From an uncultured Spirochaetota bacterium (GTDB taxonomy: Bacteria > Spirochaetota > Spirochaetia > SZUA-6 > Fen-1364): a stretch of DNA of 57,717 nt. The position numbers and the translations under genes were made by a program. Positions 9,687-51,056 of the stretch are shown here, one piece after another. Location of the stretch: contig CAVUXE010000008.1 in assembly GCA_963745235.1 (NCBI GenBank), forward strand, positions 1-57,717, read 5' to 3'. Under the pieces are notes generated by a model. It worked only from the letters and a program-made list of their open reading frames with translations. It had not been told where the DNA came from and searched no databases. Each line of letters opens with the position of its first letter. The first letter of the stretch is position 1.

Positions 9687-9929
9687 GACAGCCCTCCTGT
9701 TCTCCCGCAGGCAACGAACACGAGGGAATTTCGATCAAGGACTGCCGGAAGGCAAGCCCGGAGGACCTCCCCTTTCGGACAGGTGTGGTGCACAGATCGT
9801 TTCGGCGCTACAGGCCAATCCGAGTCACGTTGTTCGGCTCCTATGCGCGCGGAGACTACAACGCCGCGAGTGATCTCAACATTTTCATGGTTGTCCCTGA
9901 AGCAGCGGACCGTCCAGCTCTTCGCCATG

Positions 9930-10546
9930 ACCCGTGATAGAAGACAATCCGTTCGCAGATGTTGCCCACCCGATCCGCAGAGCGCTCGAGGTTGTGCGCT
10001 ACCCAGGTGAGTCGGTTGGCCTGGTCAGTGGTCTGTGGGTCGCTGATCATGATTGTGATGAGCTCGCGGTAGGTCTGCTCGTACAGCGAGTCGACCTCCA
10101 TATCTTCCGGCGGGATGCCGCGCGCCTCCTCGACATCCTGGCGCATGAAGGAGTCCAACGCTCGGTGCAGCATGTCGCATTGCCTTGTCGGCCATGCGGG
10201 GAATAGCCTCCAGAGGCTTGATCAGGGGCTTCTCGCCGAGGGCCAGAGTGACGTTGGCGATTCCCTTGGCGTAGTCGGCGATACGCTCCAACTCCGTGGC
10301 GATCTCGAAGATCGCAGCCAACGTGCGCAGGTCCCCGGCCATCGGTTGCTGGGTGGCGATGAGGGTGAGGGTGTCGTCCTCGATGGCGTAGCGCTTCTCG
10401 TTGATGAGGCGGTCATCGACTATGAGGCTGTGCGCCTTGGCCGTGTCCCTCTCCTTGAGCGCCCGCACGCTCTCGGCCATGGCCCTCAGGGCCAAGATCT
10501 CATCCTTCAGCCGCTGTAGCTCGTGTTCGAACTTTTCGCGTGGCAT
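9930..10546 (-). pseudogene. phoU: PhoU phosphate-uptake regulator, degenerate/frameshifted
   Basis: LIATQQPMAGDLR, ELERIADYAKGIA, NLERSADRVGNICERIVF; frameshift near 10180, short deletion in helix 1, ragged C-terminus. Confidence 0.75.
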
Positions 10547-10690
10547 CGTTCACCTTCTCGCTTGTACCTTGTGCCTGCTCGCATCCTAAAACAAAACTTA
10601 CTGTTTTTGCGCGCGTCGCGGTCTAGTTGGATTTTCTGTTCTAAATAATCGCCTCTTATCGAGAGTGCGTGAAACAAGGGGCAGCCATGG

Positions 10691-10897
10691 CTACAGGAGT
10701 TGACCGACCGCGCCCGGGGGAAGTAGAACGGCAATCACGATGGCTGCACCCAAGGCAACCGCTGCTACAACGCTTAACCACAGCGCAGCAAGCCTCGCTG
10801 TCTTCCGCGCCATCACTCGGCCGACAACTAACAGGGCTACAGCGACCAGGACAGGAATTGCTGCAATAAGCATCGAGGCGAAGGGCCGCAAACGCAA
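10691..10897 (-). CDS. small hydrophobic hypothetical protein (2 TM)
   Basis: Two hydrophobic stretches; start uncertain. Confidence 0.3.
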   Translation of the reverse strand: MRLRPFASMLIAAIPVLVAVALLVVGRVMARKTARLAALWLSVVAAVALGAAIVIAVLLPPGAVGQLL

Positions 10898-10980
10898 GGA
10901 ACAAGACGATGGGGTGGAAAGAAGCGGCCATAGGCCGAATACCGTGAAAACAGTGCTTCAAAGGGTATCGAGACCGTGGC

Positions 10981-11372
10981 CAGGTCTTGTTTTCGACCGA
11001 CGATCGCGATAGAGTTTCTAGCTGAACAGCTTTTCCTCTTGGAATTGTCGCCCCCGGTTTCAACTCCTTTCCGGGGGCGATTTCTTAGGTTTCAAAGAAG
11101 TACGGAGGCATGCCTGCTCCCCCATGAAGGTTCTTTCATGCTGACGATCTCCCGCGCTGGTACACATGATTGATCGAACGAAAGGGTAATAAGGGCCGAT
11201 CCCTCCCAGCGCTGACTTACCGCCATCGGACTCCGCGCCTGCGCATAAACGCTGCATGAAATATCAGTCTCGGGCAGAAGGTTAGGCAAGAGAAGCGCCA
11301 GGCTGTTTCACTCAGGAACTACCGCGGAGGATTCCCTGTCGCGCCCTCTCAGCGCGCACCATGGCCTGGCGC
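10981..11372. repeat. structured non-coding element, copy 1 (hairpin H + core C + module M on - strand)
   Basis: Shares blocks CGCCCCCGG..CCGGGGGCGATT, CATGCTGACGATCTCCCGCGCT, GACTTACCGCCAYCGGACTCCG and GCCATGGTGCGCG..CGCGAC..GAAAC with copies 2 and 3. Confidence 0.85.
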
Positions 11373-11405
11373 GGGAGAGTATGCACCCTGCGGGGAGTAC
11401 AGGGG

Positions 11406-11444
11406 AAAGAAAAGAAGGGGCCCCGGAGCGGGGATCCCGGGCCG
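11406..11444 (-). terminator. intrinsic terminator
   Basis: GGCCCCGG/CCGGGGCC stem (11419-11444) followed on the - strand by a U-rich run; near-identical to 12121-12156. Confidence 0.65.
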
Positions 11445-11492
11445 TGTCGTGTGAAGATTTTCGTCTACCTTTTCGGCAGCCGCGGTGCGTAC

Positions 11493-11669
11493 TTAAGGAG
11501 TTGTCGTCCGCTGGAATTCTCGCTCCGCCTTCCTCATCACAACCTTCTGGGATTTACACGCTTCGCAAGAATACTCGACCCACAGATCACCCAAACCTGT
11601 CTCGATCATCTCTGTGTTGCAGAAAGGACACAGAACCTCTGTCACCCCGTGCTCCGTTTTACATCCATG
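11493..11669 (-). CDS. small zinc-ribbon protein (CPFC...CEAC); likely indel near start
   Basis: Two CxxC pairs; GGAGGGG RBS before an ATG overlapping the previous stop. Confidence 0.45.
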   Translation of the reverse strand, partial: HGCKTEHGVTEVLCPFCNTEMIETGLGDLWVEYSCEACKSQKVVMRKAEREFQRTTTP

Positions 11670-11877
11670 CCACCCCTTCTTTCTTCTCGAGCTCTCTCCA
11701 GCGCTGTTCCATCTCCTCAAAGCCATGCTTGGGCATGAATCCGAAATCGTGCGAGCCACGGGGACCGCATCCATAGGGATACACCTTTTTCGGAATACCA
11801 AGGGGGAACGCCTCACAGCTCAGGCGTCCCTCGGTGTCTCCCAACCCTTTGCAGATCGTACAGAATGGTGACGCCAT
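11659..11877 (-). CDS. small Cys-rich phage-like protein (CxxC...CEAFPxGIP)
   Basis: MASPFCTICKG...SCEAFPLGIP; motif recalled from prophage hypothetical proteins. Confidence 0.5.
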   Translation of the reverse strand: MASPFCTICKGLGDTEGRLSCEAFPLGIPKKVYPYGCGPRGSHDFGFMPKHGFEEMEQRWRELEKKEGVAWM

Positions 11878-12120
11878 GTTTACGCGCGCTTCCCAGGCCA
11901 GAGCGAACGCAAAACCCAATAGATAGCGAACAAGGTGAAACCTACCAGCAGCACAACGAGCTTTCCCATAGAAACTCTTTTCAAAGGCCGGAGCGACTTG
12001 CCCCGCCAAACAAGTCGTTCGGGGTCTCAGAGAATTAGCCCAACATTGTGCATGGGGGACATTTTGAGCGGTAAGGCTTCCGAATATAGGGAGTGTATCA
12101 CAGTGAAGGCCCTGTCTGGG

Positions 12121-12156
12121 GAAAAGAGCGGCCCCGGACGCTGAGATCCCGGGGCC
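12121..12156 (-). terminator. intrinsic terminator (paralog of 11406-11444)
   Basis: Same 8-bp stem GGCCCCGG/CCGGGGCC, with CTCTTTTC downstream on the - strand. Confidence 0.6.
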
Positions 12157-12259
12157 CTGCGCCGCGGTGCGATCCGCAGAGGGCTCGCCGTGTCACTCGC
12201 CAGAGGAAAAAGCGCCGTTACCGACAAGTGGCTGTGGTTCGTAAAAGCCCGGGGCTATG

Positions 12260-12463
12260 TCAGTCTTTGAGAACACACTCAACCTGGCCGAGCAGCGAGA
12301 GCAGCTTCGTTGCGAACTCCTCAGAGCCAGGACTCTTTTTCATTAGGTCCGCCAGGGCCTGCAGCTTGAGATAGACGTCTTTGGGGATTTCGTAGTACGC
12401 CGCGAAACCAATATTTGCTGCATCGAAACAAACCTGGTCGGTAGTCATGTTGCAAACTCCCAC
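12260..12463 (-). CDS. small hypothetical protein
   Basis: 67-aa ORF, GGAG upstream of MTTDQ, terminator downstream. Confidence 0.45.
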   Translation of the reverse strand: MGVCNMTTDQVCFDAANIGFAAYYEIPKDVYLKLQALADLMKKSPGSEEFATKLLSLLGQVECVLKD

Positions 12464-12546
12464 TGTCAGTCCTAAAGGTTACACACAGGAAGCCGGCTTC
12501 TCAGGAGGTCTGGAAAAGAAAAAGTGGGATTCGCCCCTGGACTATC

Positions 12547-12856
12547 GCGCCAAGCCATGGTGCGCGCTGACGTTGGCGCGACGGGCATCTTTTCTTCGCT
12601 TAAGAAACGCTTGGCGCTCTCCTTTAACGAAGCCAGGTCCAACTTTGTTTTCGGCCGATGATCGCGGTAAACTTTAACTGAAGCCTTCCTCATGGGGATC
12701 GTCGCCCCCGGGTCACCTCCTTCCCGGGGGCGATTTTTTGGGTTTCAAAGAGGCACGGAGGCATGGCTGCTGCTTTCTCCATGCTGACGATCTCCCGCGC
12801 TTGGCAACATGACGAGAAACCCCAGCGCTGACTTACCGCCACCGGACTCCGTGTCT
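12547..12856. repeat. structured non-coding element, copy 2 (M on + strand, H, core C)
   Basis: M 12547-12617, H 12702-12733, core 12751-12856; same conserved blocks as copies 1 and 3. Confidence 0.85.
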
Positions 12857-13015
12857 CGAAGGAAAACGTGCCCATCAGAAGATCGCTCTTCGGCGGGAAA
12901 GCCGGCAAGACAGTCGAATAAACAGAAAGGCCCGGACGACTTGTCTCACCACAAGCCGACCGGACCACCACAGAGGTGTGACGAAAGATTGCCGAATCTC
13001 GTAGCAGAAGGCGGG

Positions 13016-13222
13016 TTAATGCTTCTGTTCGTCCTCGGGTTTCTCAATGAGATCCTCGACTTCCTCGACGATCACTTCATCGAGCAGACTGCAAAAGCCT
13101 GCTGTTCCATCCCTCACATTGCGCAACACGGCGGAGATCTCCGTCTCGACGTTGGATTCCATTAGATCAACCACTGATGCCAGCATGTTACGAACGATTC
13201 TTAACAGGTCCTGTTCCTTCAT
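13016..13222 (-). CDS. small acidic hypothetical protein
   Basis: MKEQDLLRIVRNMLAS... helical, protein-like composition. Confidence 0.4.
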   Translation of the reverse strand: MKEQDLLRIVRNMLASVVDLMESNVETEISAVLRNVRDGTAGFCSLLDEVIVEEVEDLIEKPEDEQKH

Positions 13223-13516
13223 CGCAACCCCGCTGCATGAAAAGATCGGTCTCGAGCAGAAGTCCTGGCAAGTGAAGCGCCAGACTGTATTCGTCTTGCT
13301 AAGATCGAAGTTTCGAGGAATCCTCAATCGCAAGAGTGAAATCAAGACCGGAGTTGGGTTCAACCCTCCGCCTCAAGACCCATAAAGTGTTGCGACCAAA
13401 GGACGAGTCAAAACAGGACATTCGAAGGATGCAAAACCGAAATCCATGGTCATCAATGGTTCCTGAATCAACAACGGGAGGATTGCAATGGGCACATATG
13501 CATCTATGGTACTCAA

Positions 13517-14203
13517 ATGGAGGTCGCTATGAAGGTAAATGGTAGCGCAATGTCCCAAACGGCTCTTTACCGGATTTCGGCCGTGGCGCTCCTCGTTGGG
13601 GCGGCGCTAGTCACGGCGGGCAACCTGCTGGGTCCGCAGGGCGATGCTAGAGAGGCGGTCGCCAGCGGGACGTACTATCCGGCCGCGGTCGTCGTGCTGT
13701 TGGGCGGCTTGTTGGTCATGGCGAGCTTGCCGGCCATCTACCTGCGCCAGCGGGCGGAGAGCGGCGTCCTCGGCTTTGCGGGTATGGTGGCTGTATTCGT
13801 GGCGGCGATGACACTGCTCGTCGGCTTCCCCCTGATCCAGGTTCTGATTTACCCCTGGATCGCAACCATGAGCGTCTCGAACAAGGTCCTCAACGATGGG
13901 CCGGCTTCTTTCAACGTCTTCTTCGCGGTCGCCAGTGGCATCGTCGATCTGGGTGGAGTCCTCTTCGGTGTCGCCACCATACGGGCCAGGATCTTCTCCC
14001 GCCAACTCGGTATCGGCTTCATCGCACTCACGGCGGCCAGTTTCGTACTCGGCTTCCTGAGTATTCCAGGGGGTGGGGGTATCGCTATGTCTTGGTGGTG
14101 GGCAACGACCGGGACCTTTGGTGTGGTCGCCTATATGGTGGCCCTAGCCTGGTTTGCGATCGAACTGCTACAGACCGTCGGCGTGCGTCGACAAACCCCA
14201 TGA
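13517..14203 (+). CDS. multi-pass membrane protein
   Basis: About 6 hydrophobic segments; GGAGG RBS before ATG 13529. Confidence 0.7.
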   Translation: MEVAMKVNGSAMSQTALYRISAVALLVGAALVTAGNLLGPQGDAREAVASGTYYPAAVVVLLGGLLVMASLPAIYLRQRAESGVLGFAGMVAVFVAAMTLLVGFPLIQVLIYPWIATMSVSNKVLNDGPASFNVFFAVASGIVDLGGVLFGVATIRARIFSRQLGIGFIALTAASFVLGFLSIPGGGGIAMSWWWATTGTFGVVAYMVALAWFAIELLQTVGVRRQTP

Positions 14204-14581
14204 AGCCTTCATTTCAGTTGCCGCGAGCTTCTCGTTGCAGCGTGCTTTTTCGGCCTTATCGAAGGTACAGGGATACAATGTAGCCGGGGGGCCAAAGCCA
14301 TCTTTGCTCTTTTCAAGGGGTCATTACCCACCTATTTCGGCGCCATTCAAATGACAATCGCTAGACTGGAGAAACCAAGGGCGTTCCACTGTGCTCTTGT
14401 CCACAACACCGCGGTCAAAAAGGCGATGGAGCGTCACGGGCAGGTGCCCCCAGTAAGGGGCACCGTACAGACGCTTCGAGGTTCTCCTGAACAGGTCGCC
14501 TCGGCGCTGCTCAGCGCCGGTTGATTTTCTGGGCGCGCCTTCATAAGATGATCCATCCAGGAACCAATCGGAGGCCCTTCC

Positions 14582-15205
14582 ATGAGTGACCATTCCTTTG
14601 AGGTCATGGCGTCTGCCCTGCTCATCATCGACATACAGAACGCGTTCATCCATTCCAACGGCTCTCTCCAGAGAATGGGGCTGGACACCTCTCGGACGCG
14701 AAAGGTCACCGAGCCCATCAAGAAACTGCGTGGCATGTTCCACGAGGCGGGCCTCCCCGTCATCTACCTCCAGCACACGCACGACGCCAACGGCGCGGAC
14801 ATGGGATTGATCGCTGAGGTCTTTCCTCCTATTCGGGCTCTCGGCCACTGCTTTAGTGGCTCTTGGGACGCTGCGGTGATCGACGACCTCACCCCCGCTT
14901 CAGACGATCATGTGGTCGAGAAGCACCGATTCAGCGGGTTCTACCAGACGGATCTCGAGGATCTCCTCCGAAGGCTCCGCATAAAGAGCCTTGTTGTTTC
15001 AGGAATCGCCACCAACATCTGCGTAGAGTCCACGATCCGCGACGCCTTCTTCCGAGACTATCCAGTCGTAGTGCCAAGAGAGACAACCGCCTCATTCACT
15101 GAAGAACAGGAGGCGGGCGCGCTCGGGAACTTCGCGTTCGCCTTCGCAAAGGTGATTCCGCTGGACGACGTCATCCGTTCGATCTCCGCCACGCGGCAAC
15201 CCTGA
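14582..15205 (+). CDS. cysteine hydrolase / isochorismatase family (RutB-like)
   Basis: ALLIIDIQNAF, KHRFSGFYQTDL, GIATNICVESTIRDAF (D-K-C triad). Confidence 0.9.
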   Translation: MSDHSFEVMASALLIIDIQNAFIHSNGSLQRMGLDTSRTRKVTEPIKKLRGMFHEAGLPVIYLQHTHDANGADMGLIAEVFPPIRALGHCFSGSWDAAVIDDLTPASDDHVVEKHRFSGFYQTDLEDLLRRLRIKSLVVSGIATNICVESTIRDAFFRDYPVVVPRETTASFTEEQEAGALGNFAFAFAKVIPLDDVIRSISATRQP

Positions 15206-15314
15206 GGTCCCTCTCGGGCTGCCCACGAGACTCACTTGGCAGGTCCCAAGCCCCACACAGATAACCTCCTTGACGATGTTCTTCTTTGAGAGGTAGACCG
15301 AAGGCTACTTATGG

Positions 15315-15878
15315 CTACTTTCTTGAGCTAGGACCTCTCTCGCCAGGAACGAAGTATACATAGTCACGAAACTCTTCGTCGGGGTTGCCGTCACCGTAGG
15401 GGTGCTTCTCGTTTGCGTTCGCGTGGCAAGTAATGCAAAAGTTTCCCATGAAGACTGCCTCTTTGCCGTTTGGAAGATCACGGGTGATCCAGAGCCAGCC
15501 GCCCTGGGAATGAGGATCCTCGGGAGCCTTGACCATGATAGTGAGCTGGATGGGCTGCTCGCCTGGGGCGGGTTTCGGCGTCTGGTAAACTTCCTTTACG
15601 ATGACGGTACCAACCGGGAAGTCCCACACGCGTTTGCCGTTGTCAAGGGTTGGTTTCACAGTGAAGCCGACATCGTTCATTCTTGGGATACGGAATCGGT
15701 TTTGATGGCCTGGTATTGGATAGTCAAGAACCACATCTGTCGTCCGTTTCCATGAGTGGTAGTCAGGTGTCGCGTACACATGAGGCTTCTCCGCCACGCA
15801 GCTTAAAAGCATTCCACACACGGCGAGCAGCGAAACACCAATAGTCCACAGCGCCGGGAGATTGTTCCGCACAGTCAT
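15315..15878 (-). CDS. cytochrome P460-family lipoprotein
   Basis: Lipobox LLSC, Y..W, FPVGTVIVKE, IMVK, GGWLW, C-terminal CITCH. Confidence 0.8.
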   Translation of the reverse strand: MTVRNNLPALWTIGVSLLAVCGMLLSCVAEKPHVYATPDYHSWKRTTDVVLDYPIPGHQNRFRIPRMNDVGFTVKPTLDNGKRVWDFPVGTVIVKEVYQTPKPAPGEQPIQLTIMVKAPEDPHSQGGWLWITRDLPNGKEAVFMGNFCITCHANANEKHPYGDGNPDEEFRDYVYFVPGERGPSSRK

Positions 15879-17329
15879 GGCGACCTCCCCTGAATAAAGC
15901 CAGTAAGAAGCCAGACTCGTTGAGGTTGATCTTTTCCCTTGAGTTTCGCGGAAAACGGCCCCTTGAACTGAAATCCGGCTTCCGTGGCTGACTTTGTTGC
16001 CTCGCTCACGACGATCTGCATTCCCTTCGCGATGCCGCAGAGTCGACTCGCGACATTCACCGAATCACCGATTACCGTGAAGTCAGCCCGGCGTAGCGAT
16101 CCAATCATGCCGTGGATGACCGAGCCAGTGGCAATCCCAGCTCCGACAGCAAGGTGGTCGAACTCTTCTGAGCTTTCGGCGCAGAGGCGAACGATGCGGA
16201 GTGCTGCTGTGCAGGCGCGGTGTGGGGCGTCGTCTCCTGAGTAGATGGCCACGATTTCGTCGCCCACAAACTTGTCGATGTCCCCGCCGCTTTTCTGGAT
16301 TATCTCTGATTGTTTCTCCAAAAGACGGTTCAGGACTTCCACAACCTGCTCCGGCTTGCGGCGCTCGGTGTAGGAGGTGAAGCCGCGGACGTCTGTAAAA
16401 AGCAAGGTGCGAAGAACACGCTGTGGTTCTTGGCTCGCTTTCAAGGAGTCCAAAGTACTTGCCGAGACGTACTTGGTGAGCTCGAAACGCTCTCGCAGAC
16501 CCCCGACCATAGTGTTGACCGTCCGTGCAAGCGTCCCAATCTCATCGTTGCTTCTGATTTCGACTCGGCCCTGAAAGTTCCCCGAGGTTACCTCTGTGCA
16601 CACCTTACCAATGAATTGCACTGGCTTCAGCACGACGCGTCGAAGAAACGTGCCGATCGCCCATACGAGGATCGTAACCACCACGAGAAAGCCTATTCCC
16701 GAGCCGCCTATTGTGAATGCCTGGGCTTTGACGGCCCCTGTCACGTCGCTCCGTATGTCAATGACTCCCCGCACAGTATGGTCCGCTCCATGGCACACAG
16801 TACATTTGGGGAGGTTTATCAGAGGTCTGTACGCTCGGAAATATGCCGTTCCTCCAGCGAGGGGATGACCGAGGTCGTCTCGAAAGAACAAGTCTTGCGG
16901 CGGTATGCCAGCTGCCTCGGCGAACCGGGGTGTCGGCATGGCCTTGCCTGGAGGCGACGGACGATCCTTGATCTGAAAGCGCTGCTTCCCAAGGTTTCTG
17001 TTCACCGTCTCGATGGTGGAATTGTCCGAAAAGGCTCTTGTTCCATCTCTTCGATACAGAGTGATTGATGTTCTGGCGTCCGTGAGATTGACCTTGGTAA
17101 AGTAGCCAACGGCTTCAGGAGCGTTGCCCGATAGCATCAGGGTCTCTATCGCGATGAAGTGATCGTCACCCTGTCTTTGCAGGCTCTGTATCGAAAGCCG
17201 GTTGCCAAAGGCAATCAGTGACGCGGCAAAGACGACAATGACAGCTCCAATCCCGACGGTCAACGCAACGACGAGGATGGTATCTACCTTGAAAGTTAAA
17301 GAGAAAAACCGTGCCTTTCTGTCTTTCAT
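15875..17329 (-). CDS. class III adenylate/guanylate cyclase with periplasmic CxxCH sensor and HAMP
   Basis: TM-periplasmic domain (PKCTVCH)-TM-HAMP (DEIGTLA)-cyclase (FTDVRGFT, DKFVGD, DFTVIGDSVNVASRL). Confidence 0.9.
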   Translation of the reverse strand: MKDRKARFFSLTFKVDTILVVALTVGIGAVIVVFAASLIAFGNRLSIQSLQRQGDDHFIAIETLMLSGNAPEAVGYFTKVNLTDARTSITLYRRDGTRAFSDNSTIETVNRNLGKQRFQIKDRPSPPGKAMPTPRFAEAAGIPPQDLFFRDDLGHPLAGGTAYFRAYRPLINLPKCTVCHGADHTVRGVIDIRSDVTGAVKAQAFTIGGSGIGFLVVVTILVWAIGTFLRRVVLKPVQFIGKVCTEVTSGNFQGRVEIRSNDEIGTLARTVNTMVGGLRERFELTKYVSASTLDSLKASQEPQRVLRTLLFTDVRGFTSYTERRKPEQVVEVLNRLLEKQSEIIQKSGGDIDKFVGDEIVAIYSGDDAPHRACTAALRIVRLCAESSEEFDHLAVGAGIATGSVIHGMIGSLRRADFTVIGDSVNVASRLCGIAKGMQIVVSEATKSATEAGFQFKGPFSAKLKGKDQPQRVWLLTGFIQGRSP

Positions 17330-17514
17330 CGATCCCGTCAGTATAGGCCGGGGCTATCGCGCCTTCAAGCTTCGCGTGCAAAGCTTCAGACCAGTTTCGC
17401 ACCAACGCTCTGAGGCACCCGGGCAACATCGGAGCTACCAGTAGACAGTCCGCAACGTTATGGGAAGTCAGGAAGGCTTTGCCACCTGCAAAAGACCATC
17501 ATAAAATAAGTGCT

Positions 17515-18555
17515 TCATTCCACGTCGCCCCCAGCGAAGTGTTGGAACAGATTCTCCTTGAGCTCTTCCAGTGCCGGCAGGCGTTTCAATACAGATAGCT
17601 CACATCCAAGGATCGCCGCCACCTTCCTCAGAGCCGCAGCAAGAGCCTGCCGCGGGACGTGGATGGCCAGCGGGATCCGAGAATGCTTTCTTACGAGTTC
17701 GAGCAGCTGCTTGTTCAACGCCCAAGCTTTTAGGTCAGGATCATCCGCCTGATCAAGAAGTTCAATACCCAAGCCGAGCCCGCTATGTTGATCGACCCAG
17801 CACATGGCCATGGGGTAGTAAGGTCGTTCACCTGGTGACTCTCGTGTAGGAGTAGGTACGTAAAAGAGGTCTGCTTCCCAGATCCCTTCCTGCCTCGCCG
17901 TCGAGCCTTTCAGTCTTGCGGCCTCAGTTTCGTCTACTACGGATTCTTGAAGTGGCCCAACAGGGGAGGGAGCTGGTTTTATCCACTGATCGATCCAACC
18001 TCCATCCGCTGCCATTACGCGAACGAAAAGCTCCTTCGCCCGAGGCGGCGCGAGCAATTCCGGCTCCGATCGTAACCGCGAACACGCCACAAAGGCTTGC
18101 TGCAGAACTTCAGTAAAGAAAACGACCTCCGATCCATCAAGACGCCAGGGGTACCATCCGCGTCGGTGACTCCTAAATTGCGGCCAACTGTTGCGCCCCC
18201 GAAAGGTAAGACCGAGCGATTTTATGAGGGCGAAGTCGCTGGCTTCCAGTCCCTGGCGGTTTTCAAACGATACCATGAGGCACGGGAACCCATAACGGAT
18301 TTCATCGTCGTCTGCCCTCAGTTCGCCAGCCTGGATTCTGCAGTGGATGCTAAGCCCGGCGGCGCCAAGGTAGGCAGCCAGCCCGAAAACCTCCCCTCTC
18401 AGGCCCAGGACACTGCACCAAGCGATCTGTCCCTGGTTCGCGTCCACCACTCCGAAAACCATGTTGTCGTCCATCCATACCCAAGGACCAAGGTCGCGGA
18501 AAGCCTCGGCAGCAGCAAAAAGGTCTCTCCATTGCTCGTCCAGTGCTTCTGGCAT
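17515..18555 (-). CDS. conserved hypothetical protein
   Basis: 346-aa ORF with protein-like composition (PWVWMDD, WPQFRS...YPW); no function recognised. Confidence 0.7.
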   Translation of the reverse strand: MPEALDEQWRDLFAAAEAFRDLGPWVWMDDNMVFGVVDANQGQIAWCSVLGLRGEVFGLAAYLGAAGLSIHCRIQAGELRADDDEIRYGFPCLMVSFENRQGLEASDFALIKSLGLTFRGRNSWPQFRSHRRGWYPWRLDGSEVVFFTEVLQQAFVACSRLRSEPELLAPPRAKELFVRVMAADGGWIDQWIKPAPSPVGPLQESVVDETEAARLKGSTARQEGIWEADLFYVPTPTRESPGERPYYPMAMCWVDQHSGLGLGIELLDQADDPDLKAWALNKQLLELVRKHSRIPLAIHVPRQALAAALRKVAAILGCELSVLKRLPALEELKENLFQHFAGGDVE

Positions 18556-18647
18556 GAGGGGAGAATAACGGAGACTATCTTACCCTGTGAACCACCTCGC
18601 GAGCCGACCCGAAGCTAACCCTTAAAATGCCTTCATCTGGCTTTGAT

Positions 18648-19115
18648 CTACTTTCCTAATCTTGGATCCAACTTATACTTGAGAGGGGTGCCTATGACGA
18701 TTTTCGAAAAATCGGGGTGTTCTGGATTTAAGAGGTAGTTGCACTGACCGGGGACCACCCCTGAAGGCACGCGTAAGACAGCGCTTCGATGCGATGTGAT
18801 CCAGTCCCCTCCAATTTGCTGTAGTTTAGCCCATCCTGGGTCTACAAGCCTTTGCCACCCTCGTGGAAGAGTAAGAGGATCCAGTTTTTCAACGAAGCTT
18901 TCATCAAAAGAGCACGGGATAAGAACATAAAGCGTAAGCAGCCGCTCATCCGTGTGAACAAGAAGCTCCAAGGTTGCCAACGACTGAGAATCGGAGGTGT
19001 AAACAACCTTCTGCCCGCTCGTATTCCACCGCCCCGGCGCTCGCGCTGCTCCTGCGCCATCAAAAGCGGTCCGAACATATTTCGGCTTGCAAATGCGCCA
19101 AGCCTCTACTGTCAT
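18648..19115 (-). CDS. RES-domain toxin
   Basis: WRI...GAGA...GRWN..G..VVYTS.S..LA.LE.LVH, LRVPS, NYLLNP.HPDF. Confidence 0.9.
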   Translation of the reverse strand: MTVEAWRICKPKYVRTAFDGAGAARAPGRWNTSGQKVVYTSDSQSLATLELLVHTDERLLTLYVLIPCSFDESFVEKLDPLTLPRGWQRLVDPGWAKLQQIGGDWITSHRSAVLRVPSGVVPGQCNYLLNPEHPDFSKIVIGTPLKYKLDPRLGK

Positions 19116-19609
19116 GAAAAAACGCCATTCTCAATTCGTCCAATCAAGTTTTCAACAAGAGCTGTCCCTGCCTCGGTTGCTATCATCTCTTCAGGCGATA
19201 GTCCTTCAAATGCCGAGTTCCTGCGCTTCAACCATTCCAAGGCGGCTTCCTGATCGCCTTCGTAAAGCTCGCACGCGTGCCAGAAGACGCGGAGAAGCCT
19301 GACAGCCCGGTCCGATTCAATAGAGTCCAGTCTTCCGCTCTTTTTTCGTCTCTCAAGCGTGCGAAAGCTCATCTGAAGAGCTGTCGCGATCTGTGTGCGA
19401 TCTAGCTCCAAGGTATCTTGAAGCAATTTTACCGTTGTATAGGGAAGGCCCTTTTGTATCATCTTGAGGATTGTCTTAGGACTATTTACCTTGACCCCGA
19501 GCACCGACCAATAACCGGCCGGATCGCCACAGCCTACCCGGGGAGCGGTTCGCCTTGTATTCCTGTACTGAGCTCCCGCGGCTATCCCCTTCGACCTAGT
19601 AGTTGCCAT
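19112..19609 (-). CDS. Xre/MbcA/ParS-family antitoxin
   Basis: GLPY...SFRTLERRKK.GRL...ESDR, A.EWL...N.AF.G.SP, LIGRIENGVFS; overlaps the RES start. Confidence 0.9.
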   Translation of the reverse strand: MATTRSKGIAAGAQYRNTRRTAPRVGCGDPAGYWSVLGVKVNSPKTILKMIQKGLPYTTVKLLQDTLELDRTQIATALQMSFRTLERRKKSGRLDSIESDRAVRLLRVFWHACELYEGDQEAALEWLKRRNSAFEGLSPEEMIATEAGTALVENLIGRIENGVFS

Positions 19610-19646
19610 ATGGCGTAATATATGCGTCATTTGGCGAACCTGTCAA
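19604..19646 (-). promoter_or_regulatory. sigma70 promoter with palindromic operators for the Xre-RES operon
   Basis: TTGACA (19646-19641)-18 bp-TATATT (19622-19617); CGCCAAATGACG and CGCCATATGGCA quasi-palindromes. Confidence 0.6.
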
Positions 19647-19818
19647 TACATTCGTTCTCGGAGTCGACCGAAGGCGCAGTTATTGGAAGTAGGTAGCAGA
19701 CCTGCCGGAAGAACCTCTTGCAGTGCGACATCCGGGTCGCCGCAAAACATCCTTACGTGAGGGGAAGAAAACCAAGGCCTCGGTGGGCAGTCTGTTCAAG
19801 AAAGAGTAAATTCGCTCT

Positions 19819-20222
19819 GCGCCGGGCCATGGTGCGCGTCGAGATGACGCGACAGGGCTTCCACTTTGCCCGTATGAAACAGCTTGGCGCCCTTTCAATC
19901 GTCCTTGCATTCTCCCGAATAATCCTGGTAAGCTGCTTTTTTCCCTTGTGCGTGCGCCCCCGGAAAATCCTGTTGGAGGATGCCTCCTGGAATCCCGGGG
20001 GCGATTCTTTAGGCTTTCCCAAAGAGGCACGGAGACATGGCTACTGTAATTGGAAAAGTCCCCCTGCGCCATGCTGACGATCTCCCGCGCTGGTACATGA
20101 TCGTGAAGAAAAATGAAGGCGATCCTTCCCAGGCGCCGACTTACCGCCACCGGACTCCGTGCCCAAAGAAAGATACAGAAAGCGCCAGGCCGTTTCACTC
20201 AGGAACTACCCGTGGCCTGGCG
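19819..20222. repeat. structured non-coding element, copy 3 (M+, H, core C, internally deleted M-)
   Basis: M 19819-19890, H 19955-20003, core 20026-20163, short inverted M 20182-20222. Confidence 0.85.
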
Positions 20223-20448
20223 AAGGCCGACCGGGTTACTTCAAATCGTTGCGGGTCCGAAGGCCCATGACATTTCTCACGGGGCGTGACGGGCCCACGT
20301 CAGCTCCCTTCCGACGGGCTCTTACTGTTGTGCTGGATCAATGCCGTATTCCTTTCTGATCGATTGCGAAAGGAATTGAGCATCGAAAAGATCGTGGTGT
20401 ATTTGGATACGACAAACCCTTCAGAAAACTTCACCACGGCCCTGAGCA

Positions 20449-50984: not shown

Positions 50985-51056
50985 TGGGCGATACTGGATT
51001 TGAACCAGTGACTTCTACCGTGTGAAGGTAGCACTCTCCCACTGAGTTAATCGCCC
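50985..51056 (-). tRNA. tRNA-Val (anticodon CAC), CCA not encoded
   Basis: GGGCGAT-TA-ACTCAGTGGGAGAGT-G-CTACC TT CAC AC GGTAG-AAGTC-ACTGG TTCAAAT CCAGT-ATCGCCC-A cloverleaf. Confidence 0.95.

Follow-up and report, generated by a model that had tools for sequence, protein, structure and literature searches.

What are the structured stretches that recur between the small genes of this spirochaete contig? The window, the whole stretch of 57,717 nucleotides that we analysed, carries three copies of a structured non-coding unit of about 300 bases, and the genome to which it belongs, that of a peat spirochaete (Fen-1364), has the unit at nine places, these three included. A sequence-only reading had described the copies as modular, folded, non-coding, located on mobile DNA and without a known family, and our findings support that description. 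A repeat search and BLAST recovered the shared blocks in all three regions and in the plus-strand order that had been given (Table 1); the E-values between copies, 1e-14 to 1e-30, exclude chance as the source of their likeness. The proposed series of a left module M, a hairpin H, a core C and a right M was correct in its order but incomplete, having passed over a block P to the left of H and, in copies 1 and 2, a block D to the right of C. As had been seen, copy 1 has no left M and copy 2 no right M; copy 3, credited with all four parts, does have both Ms, but its right one is reduced by an internal deletion. The neighbouring small ORFs had been called phage-like, a view that found little favour: none of ten matched Pfam and seven window ORFs yielded one weak PHROG match.

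Table 1. Parts of the unit in the window and associated repeats and genes (positions in the window).
Feature	Position	Strand	Remarks
Copy 1, block P	10987-11015	+	Promoter-like; hexamer 1 10987-10992, 17-nt spacer with short palindrome, hexamer 2 11010-11015
Copy 1, hairpin H and T-run	11047-11093		Arms 11047-11057/11071-11081, loop 11058-11070; plus-strand T-rich run 11082-11093; terminator-like call on plus strand; loop shares 7 bases with own 16S 3' tail
Copy 1, core C	11097-11239	-	143 nt; Y-shaped fold (closed by P1; arms P4-P3 and P2); covariance-model score 110-115 bits
Copy 1, block D	11260-11290	-	Promoter-like; first hexamer region 11290-11285, second hexamer 11265-11260
Copy 1, right module M	11295-11372		78-nt three-way hairpin; closing stem 9 bp, GC-rich
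Copy 2, left module M	12547-12617		About 81 nt extra relative to paralogous locus on contig C30
Copy 2, block P	12645-12673	+	Hexamers 12645-12650, 12668-12673
Copy 2, hairpin H and T-run	12701-12745		H 12701-12734; loop 12713-12722, with 10 bases in common with 16S 3' tail
Copy 2, core C	12750-12855	-	106 nt, shortest form in window
Copy 2, block D	12879-12909	-	Second hexamer 12884-12879, first hexamer region 12909-12904
Solitary D block and remnant of M end	13242-13288	-	Repeat family; no C core; directly precedes gene for 68-aa acidic protein (start 13222)
Copy 3, left module M	19819-19890		From sequence and repeats
Copy 3, diverged block P	19905-19934	+	Putative, from position and likeness only; hexamers 19905-19910, 19929-19934, 18-nt spacer
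Copy 3, long H variant and T-rich run	19955-20015		Hairpin 19955-20003
Copy 3, core C	20024-20163	-	140 nt; no D block after core
Copy 3, right module M	20182-20222		Shortened by internal deletion
C junction strand, three-copy repeat	11137-11169, 12780-12812, 20070-20102		Repeat search
C junction strand, three-copy repeat	11205-11240, 12821-12856, 20129-20164		Repeat search
H 3' arm and C start			Likewise three-copy repeat families (repeat search)
M inverted repeat	11329-11372, 19819-19862		84%
M inverted repeat	11349-11373, 12546-12570		96%
Gene downstream of copy 1	10897-10691	-
Gene downstream of copy 2	12463-12260	-
RES-Xre pair downstream of copy 3		-

The family has a patchy distribution. 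Of 92 genomes of the order searched with a covariance model, 4 carry it; these belong to a single genus, in which it occurs in 4 of 21 species. It is also on 16 peat metagenome contigs. A scan of both strands of 10800-20400 with Rfam release 15 (4227 models) gave nothing reaching even E = 1 in the copies, the models for riboswitches, ribozymes, introns, OMEGA/HEARO, tmRNA, 6S and Y RNA included. A single chance lncRNA match in that scan lies outside the copies. Searches of PLSDB, INPHARED and IMG/VR with the family returned nothing. The unit seems to be an RNA family absent from the catalogues, that is, a new one.

Core C, 103-148 nt long over 24 members, has a Y-shaped fold of four helices, closed by a helix and forking into two arms, P4-P3 (the longer) and P2 (the shorter), each of which ends in a variable tip; the junction and internal-loop nucleotides are strongly conserved. 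In the 24-sequence alignment 95.7% of 672 pair cells are standard, as against 35-44% when the partners are slid, and RNAalifold, given no structure, recovered the same four helices. Covariation is in keeping with the fold: double changes occur at five pairs, a number matched in 1 of 500 shuffles, and the score of 0.110 (versus 0.096) is reached in 2 of 500, although the signal is thin because the copies are closely related (effective sequence number 1.9), and the changes counted are non-independent events. Whole stems have been swapped at the tip of P3 and at hairpin A of M; pairing in P3 is just 90%, and the folding of whole predicted transcripts is no better than that of shuffles (z -1.3). 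The differences in core length are not multiples of three and reading frames, traced by eye, disagree between copies; with loops that vary in length a common reading frame is absent, just as the sequence-only reading held.

That reading took the plus strand as its reference, and here our results differ, for the minus strand is more likely the folded one. The case is made by pair counts, by a further helix whose consensus includes G·U pairs and by folding energies. Helices P1-P3 contain 25 G·U cells on the minus strand and 9 A·C cells, which are G·U on the opposite strand; a first count over 30 rows (30 and 12) pointed in the same direction. In P4 two pairs are G·U in the consensus (41 G·U cells), and their changes are to A-U. 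All 24 cores are more stable when folded as the minus strand (mean -51.7 versus -42.8 kcal/mol, mean z -2.2 versus -1.4), and the informative pair in H, judged by eye, favours the minus strand in five cells and the plus strand in two. G·T pairs are tolerated in DNA hairpins as well, so this bias is neutral between RNA and single-stranded DNA.

The copies cease to resemble one another at the outer hexamers of the D and P blocks, and the conserved unit is bounded by two convergent promoter-like sites: D, on the minus strand, faces C and then H, while P, on the plus strand, faces H and then a plus-strand T-run. In the second hexamer of P, positions 2, 4 and 6 are invariant in 14 of 14 rows and positions 3 and 5 vary, a promoter-like pattern of the kind expected of a -10 hexamer. 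A generic promoter scan of 10600-13500 called none, the P block of copy 1 being missed because it has fewer than 9 of 12 matches. D fits the usual consensus poorly in its second hexamer, can be made out by eye in just 16-17 of 29 rows and stands also 18-34 nt before a protein gene, the small acidic gene at 13222. Each of the 15 H loops compared has 6-11 bases (median 8) in common with the 16S rRNA 3' tail of the genome; in the long H of copy 3, a variant that recurs on contig C12 and on metagenome contig L072, the tail-like stretch is paired with its own complement inside the hairpin. H and P are both missing from about one third of cores, so an antisense partner is not essential to C. By our reading, G015_b, a copy without H, has on the same strand a hairpin and T-run that lie about 100-145 nt past C. 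Three peat RNA runs each contain one short contig identical to the core region of copy 1 (zero mismatches, wholly inside, jointly covering 11058-11254) and a further RNA-library contig resembles G015_b; these are assembled contigs from a single study that carry no strand, ends or level, and their weight is limited by the fact that RNA libraries can contain DNA.

Three hypotheses accompanied the sequence-only reading. The first, a novel multi-copy non-coding RNA system, is the best fit, given the promoter- and terminator-like signals at the edges, the G·U asymmetry and the identical contigs in three RNA libraries. Put more specifically, and with confidence that is evenly balanced, the unit would be a cassette of two convergent small RNAs, sense and antisense, of a new kind and carried on mobile DNA.

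It is possible, if unlikely, that C works instead at the level of DNA, as folded single-stranded minus-strand DNA or as duplex, and is a site at which one of the genome's many tyrosine recombinases recombines DNA or delimits cassettes. Like the attC sites of integrons, the units would in that case stand as dividers between small gene cassettes, and any RNA would be a by-product. The units do stand between small same-strand genes with their own terminators, C recurs in many differing surroundings and is sharply bounded at the foot of P1, and the strand bias is neutral here. The genome is rich in mobile DNA and has 50 tyrosine-recombinase matches, some of them 1.5-5 kb from copies on contigs C103, C11 and C31, but no single recombinase gene accompanies the unit within 3 kb. 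In one core an IS110-family element (Pfam DEDD_Tnp_IS110 and Transposase_20) is inserted site-specifically, at a defined point, C being the target of its insertion. REP elements and integron attC sites are repeated structured intergenic targets of IS110/IS1111 elements, and the unit resembles them in being multicopy, structure-conserved and intergenic between small genes. It is far larger, however, and has a Y shape where they are simple imperfect palindromes; no integron-type core motifs were seen in it, and it has no REP-associated transposase nearby. Against a DNA-level role we also set the absence, by reading, of a conserved crossover-type core motif at the ends of C or M, the unit's own promoter- and terminator-like edges with their -10-like variation, and the core-identical contigs in the RNA libraries.

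A cis-acting leader, riboswitch-like or protein-binding, is an improbable explanation. Every window copy is upstream of a minus-strand gene, in whose 5' UTR C would be the sensor and H, with its ribosome-binding-like stretch on display, the expression platform; conserved junctions with variable tips suit such a role, and minus-strand transcripts could run on since H has no T-run after it on that strand. The downstream genes, however, are unlike from copy to copy, and by reading no start codon follows H at a constant interval (an ATG in three copies only, in differing frames). Below copy 3, the toxin-antitoxin operon is served by a strong promoter of its own (19646-19617), 170 nt past the unit, and occurrence in so few species of the genus is unlike that of a metabolite sensor.

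We consider still more doubtful a locus of the type I toxin-antitoxin kind, in which a toxic peptide would be encoded by the long RNA and countered by the short convergent one as antisense antitoxin, an arrangement that chromosomes also have in repeated loci of this sort. The par/fst RNA I-RNA II pair and the 3'-overlapping type I loci, which are among the closest known parallels to the proposed small-RNA cassette as well, are convergent sense/antisense pairs of plasmids and prophages that overlap at a shared hairpin. The unit shares with them facing promoter-like sites about 250 bp apart, a predicted long structured RNA and a predicted short one, an overlap at a GC-rich hairpin that would be a terminator for at least one of the RNAs, a location on mobile DNA and several copies per genome; there are toxin-antitoxin genes in the neighbourhood, and a 68-aa protein with two hydrophobic stretches follows copy 1. 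It departs from them in that its long RNA has no conserved small ORF, the candidates from the leader ATG, the P2 ATG and the region after H varying in frame and length between copies (by reading). The T-run is on one side of the hairpin only, the cores without H and P have no antisense partner, and there is no sequence or Rfam similarity.

The sequence-only reading had also offered a mobile unit with M as its inverted termini, and a non-autonomous, MITE-like element with its transposase encoded elsewhere is very improbable. The genome is full of mobile DNA, copy 3 has inverted Ms on both flanks, and M is present or absent as an approximately 81-nt block between paralogous loci (copy 2 and contig C30), relative to which it does behave, at the sequence level, as a separate insertion or deletion. 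Yet most copies lack one or both Ms, no target-site duplication was seen by reading at the ends of copy 3 and no transposase accompanies the unit, so this view is unsupported; TnpB gave no matches, Y1 and IS110 transposase genes are not found near the copies in the genome, and a search for an empty site lacking the unit found none. M occurs solely beside these units, at about seven places in the genome, 4-27 nt upstream of D or P and in constant orientation relative to that promoter; it is an accessory structured block that could act as an insulator, a terminator or a protein-binding site.

The remaining hypothesis, a single-stranded-DNA promoter or priming signal (Frpo-, ssi- or sso-like) active when an element enters the cell single-stranded, is unsupported and the least probable of all: PMC11541004 describes such promoters upstream of small leading-region genes, and the unit is similar in forming several structured stretches of about 300 nt before small same-strand accessory genes on transferable DNA, with a MobA/MobL relaxase on one contig (C103), but in an Frpo, as described there, the -35 and -10 arise within a paired stem that imitates double-stranded DNA, whereas both promoter-like blocks of the unit lie outside every conserved helix with no inverted repeat to pair with them, its promoter-like site precedes the folded part, the order of an RNA gene, it shows no sequence similarity to these signals or to any PLSDB plasmid, and in other genomes it is found also on large, probably chromosomal contigs.

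We return to the convergent small-RNA cassette, in which each full unit would be a small transcription unit of this kind in the accessory regions of mobile DNA. What the data show is that the unit is repeated and non-coding, keeps its helices with some compensatory change, differs between its strands, has its signals at the positions given and is present in RNA libraries; the existence of the two RNAs, where they end, how they pair and what they do are inferred. D would start a minus-strand RNA of about 200 nt that runs from a short leader through core C and an A-rich linker to the GC-rich H, which no T-run follows on this strand and whose loop would read in this RNA as a strong ribosome-binding-site-like purine stretch. 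P would give rise on the plus strand to an RNA of about 65 nt with its end at H, which on this strand resembles, with its T-run, an intrinsic terminator and has a loop that would read like the organism's own 16S rRNA 3' tail. In FinP/traJ and CopA/CopT an antisense RNA controls a ribosome-binding site displayed in a hairpin loop; the unit likewise has a ribosome-binding-like stretch in the loop of a stable hairpin and a predicted short RNA from the opposite strand whose loop is its exact complement, a geometry that favours loop-loop 'kissing', but it has no start codon or gene at a fixed distance and is not tied to one gene such as rep or tra: an HTH_36 Rep-like gene lies about 870 nt downstream of it on only two metagenome contigs. 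Plasmid antisense pairs control each other by such pairing, and the two RNAs of the cassette, being fully complementary over H, may pair loop to loop and control each other in the same manner, while the conserved Y-shaped domain of the long RNA would bind a protein or another nucleic acid.

The three intergenic regions of the window that a sequence-only reading had described as built from the same blocks do share those blocks (BLAST between the regions gave E values of 1e-14 to 1e-30), and the unit that they contain belongs to a larger family. Its plus-strand order is (M)-P-H-C-D-(M), where C is a Y-shaped core made of helices P1 to P4, H is a hairpin and M is an accessory three-way hairpin. 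P, to the left of H, and D, to the right of C, are promoter-like blocks of the plus and the minus strand, respectively; that reading had named neither, and both are conserved. The source genome comprises 5.85 Mb in 104 contigs and is 85.7% complete, the window being the whole of its 57.7-kb contig C8. The core occupies nine places in this genome: three on C8, two on C103, one each on C11, C30 and C31, and a degenerate one on C12. The Rfam scan of the whole window at the gathering threshold returned only a tRNA-Val; when 10800-20400 was compared with Rfam 15 at E values up to 1, the sole match was PVT1_3, which reached 21 bits against a cut-off of 45 and lies outside the copies. A literature search on peat, spirochaetes and non-coding RNA found nothing relevant, and it is on this search, a search on Frpo and Rfam that we base the statement that the family is not in print.

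The distribution is narrow. The core was found in 4 of 61 relatives searched by DNA, in 4 of the 25 genomes of the family and in 4 of the 92 genomes of the order, all in one genus, in which three of the 20 other species carry it; named records place the core-bearing genomes in Spirochaetota. The pattern scan of metagenome contigs gave 16 contigs, each with a model match of at least 89 bits, and no match to the unit was found in PLSDB or INPHARED (distant blastn) or in IMG/VR (pattern). An exact 20-mer scan of 185,579 species genomes returned 22 stretches, only three of which are real (91-121 bits); the other 19 are coding matches of at most 20.5 bits, which we read as codons for a PAS-domain peptide. 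The family itself is real: an uncatalogued, narrow family of structured non-coding elements, belonging to one genus of uncultured peat spirochaetes and to their mobile DNA.

The most conserved 16-mer of the core has a tenth exact match in the genome, in a coding region of contig C10, that we read as chance. Core 16-20-mers occur in coding DNA at this site and likewise in 19 unrelated genomes (L050-L070) of high-GC bacteria, where they appear to spell a common PAS-domain peptide and can mislead pattern scans. An RNA from the minus strand of the core would complement such messages over 16 bases.

The DNA around the copies is mosaic and rich in repeats. The genes of contig C103 include ParA-like, Mrr, HTH_36 (Rep-like), MobA/MobL and integrase genes, and no other contig has a relaxase gene; on two metagenome contigs an HTH_36 gene lies about 870 nt downstream of the core. 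Of the 21 genomes of the genus, 6 have the HTH_36 Rep-like backbone, and none of the three further genomes that carry the core does; the core is therefore not restricted to that replicon. Tyrosine recombinases (Phage_integrase) account for 50 matches in the genome, with three regions on the window, one of them beside tRNA-Val; most copies have no such match within 3 kb. When the ORFs lying within 3 kb of 34 copies were clustered, no large ORF, transposase, integrase or reverse transcriptase was common to them; the only clusters were of ankyrin-repeat proteins, of a small acidic protein and of spurious frames that overlie the element. Matches to RVT_1 lie on other contigs than the copies, and the small ORFs beside the copies have no Pfam match and almost no PHROG match. 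Four stretches of the window are nearly identical to other contigs of the genome (see the table), and the window is a patchwork made of repeated mobile DNA whose ends are probably assembly breaks at repeats. Two overlapping minus-strand ORFs that together resemble one gene have 77% DNA identity to a stretch on C44 and may be a frameshifted copy; their translation may be PhoU-like. Copy 3 stands upstream of a RES-Xre pair, a toxin-antitoxin operon with a strong promoter of its own, and beside this pair lies a gene for a DUF7309 and DUF6930 protein that is 89% identical on C17 and C26.

Positions of the features discussed (window coordinates unless a contig is named; C, contigs of the source genome; L, metagenome contigs)
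Feature	Location	Strand	Size or other detail
Core of copy 1	11097-11239		
Core of copy 2	12750-12855		
Core of copy 3	20024-20163		
RNA-library contigs of copy 1, one per run	11067-11254; 11070-11229; 11058-11231		188 nt; 160 nt; 174 nt
Sigma-54-like pattern	11285-11300; 13267-13282	minus	
Small, very acidic protein	13016-13222	minus	about 68 aa; no Pfam or PHROG match
Small acidic protein on C103	C103 10183-10422		
Overlapping ORFs	9856-10546	minus	105 and 173 aa
DUF7309 and DUF6930 protein	17515-18555	minus	346 aa
Match to PVT1_3	14195-14292		
tRNA-Val	50985-51056		
Stretches repeated on C81, C11, C31, C23 and C43	1-1613; 33693-36269; 41047-43613; 50934-57717		90-99% identical
Core 16-20-mer in coding DNA	C10 near 83327	minus	
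IS110-family element	L073:1464-2935 (same locus on L074 and L082)		about 1.3 kb; near-inverted ends of about 13 bp

The constant part of the unit is the core, which is closed by the 9-bp helix P1 and bears two hairpins whose tips are free in sequence and length. Cores range from 103 to 148 nt, and no reading frame is conserved among the copies, as the sequence-only reading had held. A covariance model built from 13 copies aligned 34 matches, 30 of them distinct. On the plus strand the pair cells of these 30 rows include 30 A·C and 12 G·U; an A·C cell of one strand corresponds to G·U in the opposite strand, so that the minus strand is the one that folds better. For a second alignment, in the minus-strand sense, six rows were left out (near-duplicates from overlapping metagenome contigs, two cores split by an insertion sequence, the degenerate C12 core and one truncated copy); in the remaining 24 sequences the cells of P1, P2 and P3 together include 25 G·U against 9 A·C. 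The fourth helix, P4, is formed by the two long 'junction strands'; it contains two consensus G·U pairs (41 G·U cells) where the changes, in 2 and 5 rows, give A-U. RNAalifold, run with no structure supplied, recovered P1, P4, P3 and P2 and lengthened P4 to 7 bp. Standard pairs make up 95.7% of the 672 cells of the four helices and 35-44% when the partners are slid. The minus-strand fold is the more stable in all 24 cores (mean -51.7 versus -42.8 kcal/mol), with a mean z against dinucleotide shuffles of -2.2 for the minus strand and -1.4 for the plus strand; the whole predicted transcripts fold no better than shuffles (z of -1.3, -0.04 and -1.3).

Selection on a folded molecule, which the sequence-only reading had put forward, was to be sought as covariation in a broader alignment. 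Double-sided change occurs in five pairs, a number reached by 1 of 500 shuffles, and the covariation score is 0.110 versus 0.096 (2 of 500), in tests that overstate significance for related sequences, here with an effective number of only 1.9. The signal exceeds shuffles and comes from close relatives, and given that effective number we call the covariation in C real but thin; an earlier count on 13 sequences was not significant. Hammerhead ribozymes are three-way junctions with two conserved core strands. The plus strand of C fits the first of these after P2, the second is absent after P3 by our reading, there is no Rfam match, and the class was rejected; neither k-turn nor hammerhead motifs were seen by eye.

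When 29 distinct flanks were aligned, the likeness between copies ended at the outer edges of P and D. In block P two hexamers flank a 17-nt spacer that includes a short palindrome. Bases 2, 4 and 6 of the second hexamer are kept in 14 of 14 aligned rows while 3 and 5 vary, which is the variation expected of a sigma-70 -10 element. P was not called by a generic promoter scan, in which it matched fewer than 9 of 12 positions of a consensus made of the scan's own hexamers. Block D has a first hexamer region that 17-18 nt separate from a weak second hexamer; inspection by eye finds the block in 16-17 of the 29 rows, and copy 3 is without it. We read D as a promoter mainly because a D block stands directly before the gene for a 68-aa acidic protein (start at 13222), with no core between them. 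This small acidic protein recurs beside units on C103 and on metagenome contigs L076 and L084, with the same D-type promoter block; its gene may serve these elements in an accessory or anti-defence-type role. In places where M adjoins D, the first hexamer of D and the end of M form a pattern resembling the -24/-12 form of sigma-54 promoters. There are two matches in the window against 0.17 expected, at homologous sites that are therefore not counted twice. Sigma-54 as the general promoter was rejected; the pattern fits only copies with M abutting D and is absent from those that have no M.

Hairpin H has a GC-rich stem of 11-12 bp and a loop of 10-15 nt, and is followed by a T-rich run on the plus strand. 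At its one informative pair five cells fit the minus strand, two fit the plus strand and two rows are fully compensated (by eye). We located the 3' end of 16S rRNA on two contigs of the genome and found that the plus-strand loop of H has 6-11 consecutive bases (median 8) in common with the 16S tail in 15 of 15 hairpins; it follows that a minus-strand RNA would display a long stretch like a ribosome-binding site and that a plus-strand RNA would carry a copy of the 16S tail. A long variant of H (copy 3, C12 and metagenome contig L072) contains the two stretches base-paired to each other.

Module M is a fold of 71-81 nt with a 9-bp GC-rich closing stem that shows a double GG/CC to AA/TT exchange. 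Its first inner hairpin has a different stem sequence in 8 copies, its second a C-G to T-A exchange, and its wobble counts favour neither strand. M occurs only beside these units, at about seven places in the genome, and always lies 4-27 nt upstream of D or P in an orientation that is constant relative to that promoter; in copy 2 it is an extra block of about 81 nt in comparison with the paralogous locus on C30. On L076 and L084 the variable inner hairpin of M resembles the T-arm of a tRNA, with a 4-5-bp stem and a 7-nt loop of the usual T-loop sequence.

Three peat metatranscriptome runs from one study cover 10900-13000 to a small extent. In each of them a single short contig falls wholly inside copy 1 with zero differences, and together the three span the copy-1 core, a short leader and part of H. 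One run also has a 239-nt contig resembling the core of G015_b, a copy in another genome, and another has a 262-nt contig spanning the M module of a C30-like locus. These contigs record presence in an RNA library, where DNA may also occur, and carry no strand, ends or level; they amount to no more than a hint of transcription. We did not take their ends as RNA ends or use the contig-free parts of 10900-13000 as evidence. One contig end, at 11254, falls 6 nt below the second hexamer of D, which we treat as a coincidence.

Among the possibilities raised by the sequence-only reading, these data favour a novel non-coding RNA system and lend no support to a single-stranded DNA signal or a mobile unit with M ends. 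We give roughly even credence to a convergent small-RNA cassette, in which an RNA of about 200 nt from the minus strand, made up of leader, Y-shaped core, linker and H, would be faced by a plus-strand RNA of about 65 nt. It is favoured by the signals at both edges, the asymmetry between the strands, the D block that recurs before a protein gene and the contigs from RNA libraries, taken together. A small-RNA gene in general should have its own promoter, a defined end and a discrete transcript; what was observed is the promoter-like D and presence in three RNA libraries, in contigs that carry no strand, ends or level. P and H with its T-run predict the short antisense RNA, which would extend from P to the T-run and be complementary to the minus-strand RNA over H. 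The two RNAs may pair through the H loops, and the Y-domain might have a protein or a nucleic acid as its partner. Sense/antisense pairs of plasmids and prophages have a similar architecture; unlike them, the cassette has no conserved ORF or regulated gene, and it has a Y-shaped domain, a multicopy modular spread, and a display of 16S-tail and ribosome-binding-site sequences. It is a speculative step, and one that we think improbable, to see in the cassette a ribosome-directed device of the mobile element. The H loop of the Y-shaped RNA, in which as many as 10-11 bases can complement the 3' tail of 16S rRNA, would then serve as a decoy or docking site for 30S subunits, and the facing RNA of about 65 nt, as a mimic of the 16S tail, could cover the ribosome-binding sites of other messages, so tuning or hijacking translation initiation in the host or competing with rival elements.

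Of the other explanations, a site of recombination or a cassette boundary acting at the DNA level comes first, and we consider it unlikely. Integron attC sites are imperfect palindromes of 57-141 bp with conserved outer core sites; on reading, the foot of P1 and the closing stem of M show no such motif, the core is three-armed and not a simple palindrome, and attC was rejected. Three overlapping metagenome contigs (L073, L074 and L082) contain an IS110-family element, whose 350-aa protein has DEDD_Tnp_IS110 and Transposase_20 domains, inside a core. The element has entered at a single point, within the strand that links P3 to the 3' strand of P1, and three bases recur on each side of it. Because the element splits the core from within, the core is its target and not an IS end. 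An IS110 bridge RNA or IS1111 seekRNA is encoded beside the DEDD recombinase gene, in the non-coding end of its element. That C is itself such an RNA was rejected for this reason, and also because the nearest IS110-type gene in genome G000 is about 20 kb from a copy. The non-coding tail of the element, about 200 nt after the transposase gene, contains stretches that look like the split target, a feature to be expected if the tail encodes a guide (seekRNA-type) RNA.

The unit might instead be a riboswitch or other cis leader of the genes downstream, an idea with little probability. Such a leader would have an expression platform and always accompany functionally related genes; here the downstream genes differ, the toxin-antitoxin operon has its own promoter, and in the aligned copies H is not followed by a start codon at any constant distance, and reading frames vary. 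Still less probable is a locus of the type I toxin-antitoxin kind, which would have a conserved small ORF, usually a hydrophobic one, in the long RNA and a short antisense RNA overlapping that RNA, given that the candidate frames change between copies, the cores differ in length by non-multiples of three and no small ORF is conserved. The mobile unit bounded by M modules is very improbable. An insertion-sequence end or MITE would show terminal inverted repeats on either side and a duplicated target site. Only copy 3 has M on both sides, one of them truncated, and the flanks differ by our reading. No matching transposase was found (TnpB, searched as Cas12f1-like_TNB, has 0 matches, and the 5 Transposase_20 and 4 Y1_Tnp matches in the genome are not beside copies), and the flanks of G015_b gave no colinear locus without the core that could serve as an empty site. 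A single-strand promoter of the Frpo or ssi type is hardly credible. In Frpo the -35 and -10 hexamers are described as part of a long stem, formed within one strand, that imitates duplex DNA (PMC11541004), and here D and P lie outside P1-P4, H and M and have no partner among 38 inverted pairs. Such a promoter would also stand beside oriT in the leading region, on the transferred strand, and no oriT or nick site was located.

If the convergent cassette is the correct reading, these spirochaetes possess a new structured RNA family of about 30 distinct members, found in environmental RNA libraries and unusual in its build: a Y-domain is joined to a hairpin with a near-perfect ribosome-binding-site sequence, and an antisense RNA resembling the 16S tail faces them. 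The family would also offer an IS110-family (RNA-guided) recombinase a defined target that occurs naturally, and even if the unit were only a recombination or repeat element it would still be a clean example of a structure-conserved repeat targeted by such an IS. The cassette, if real, would represent RNA-based control on mobile elements in Spirochaetota, a phylum in which, to our knowledge, few small RNAs have been described.
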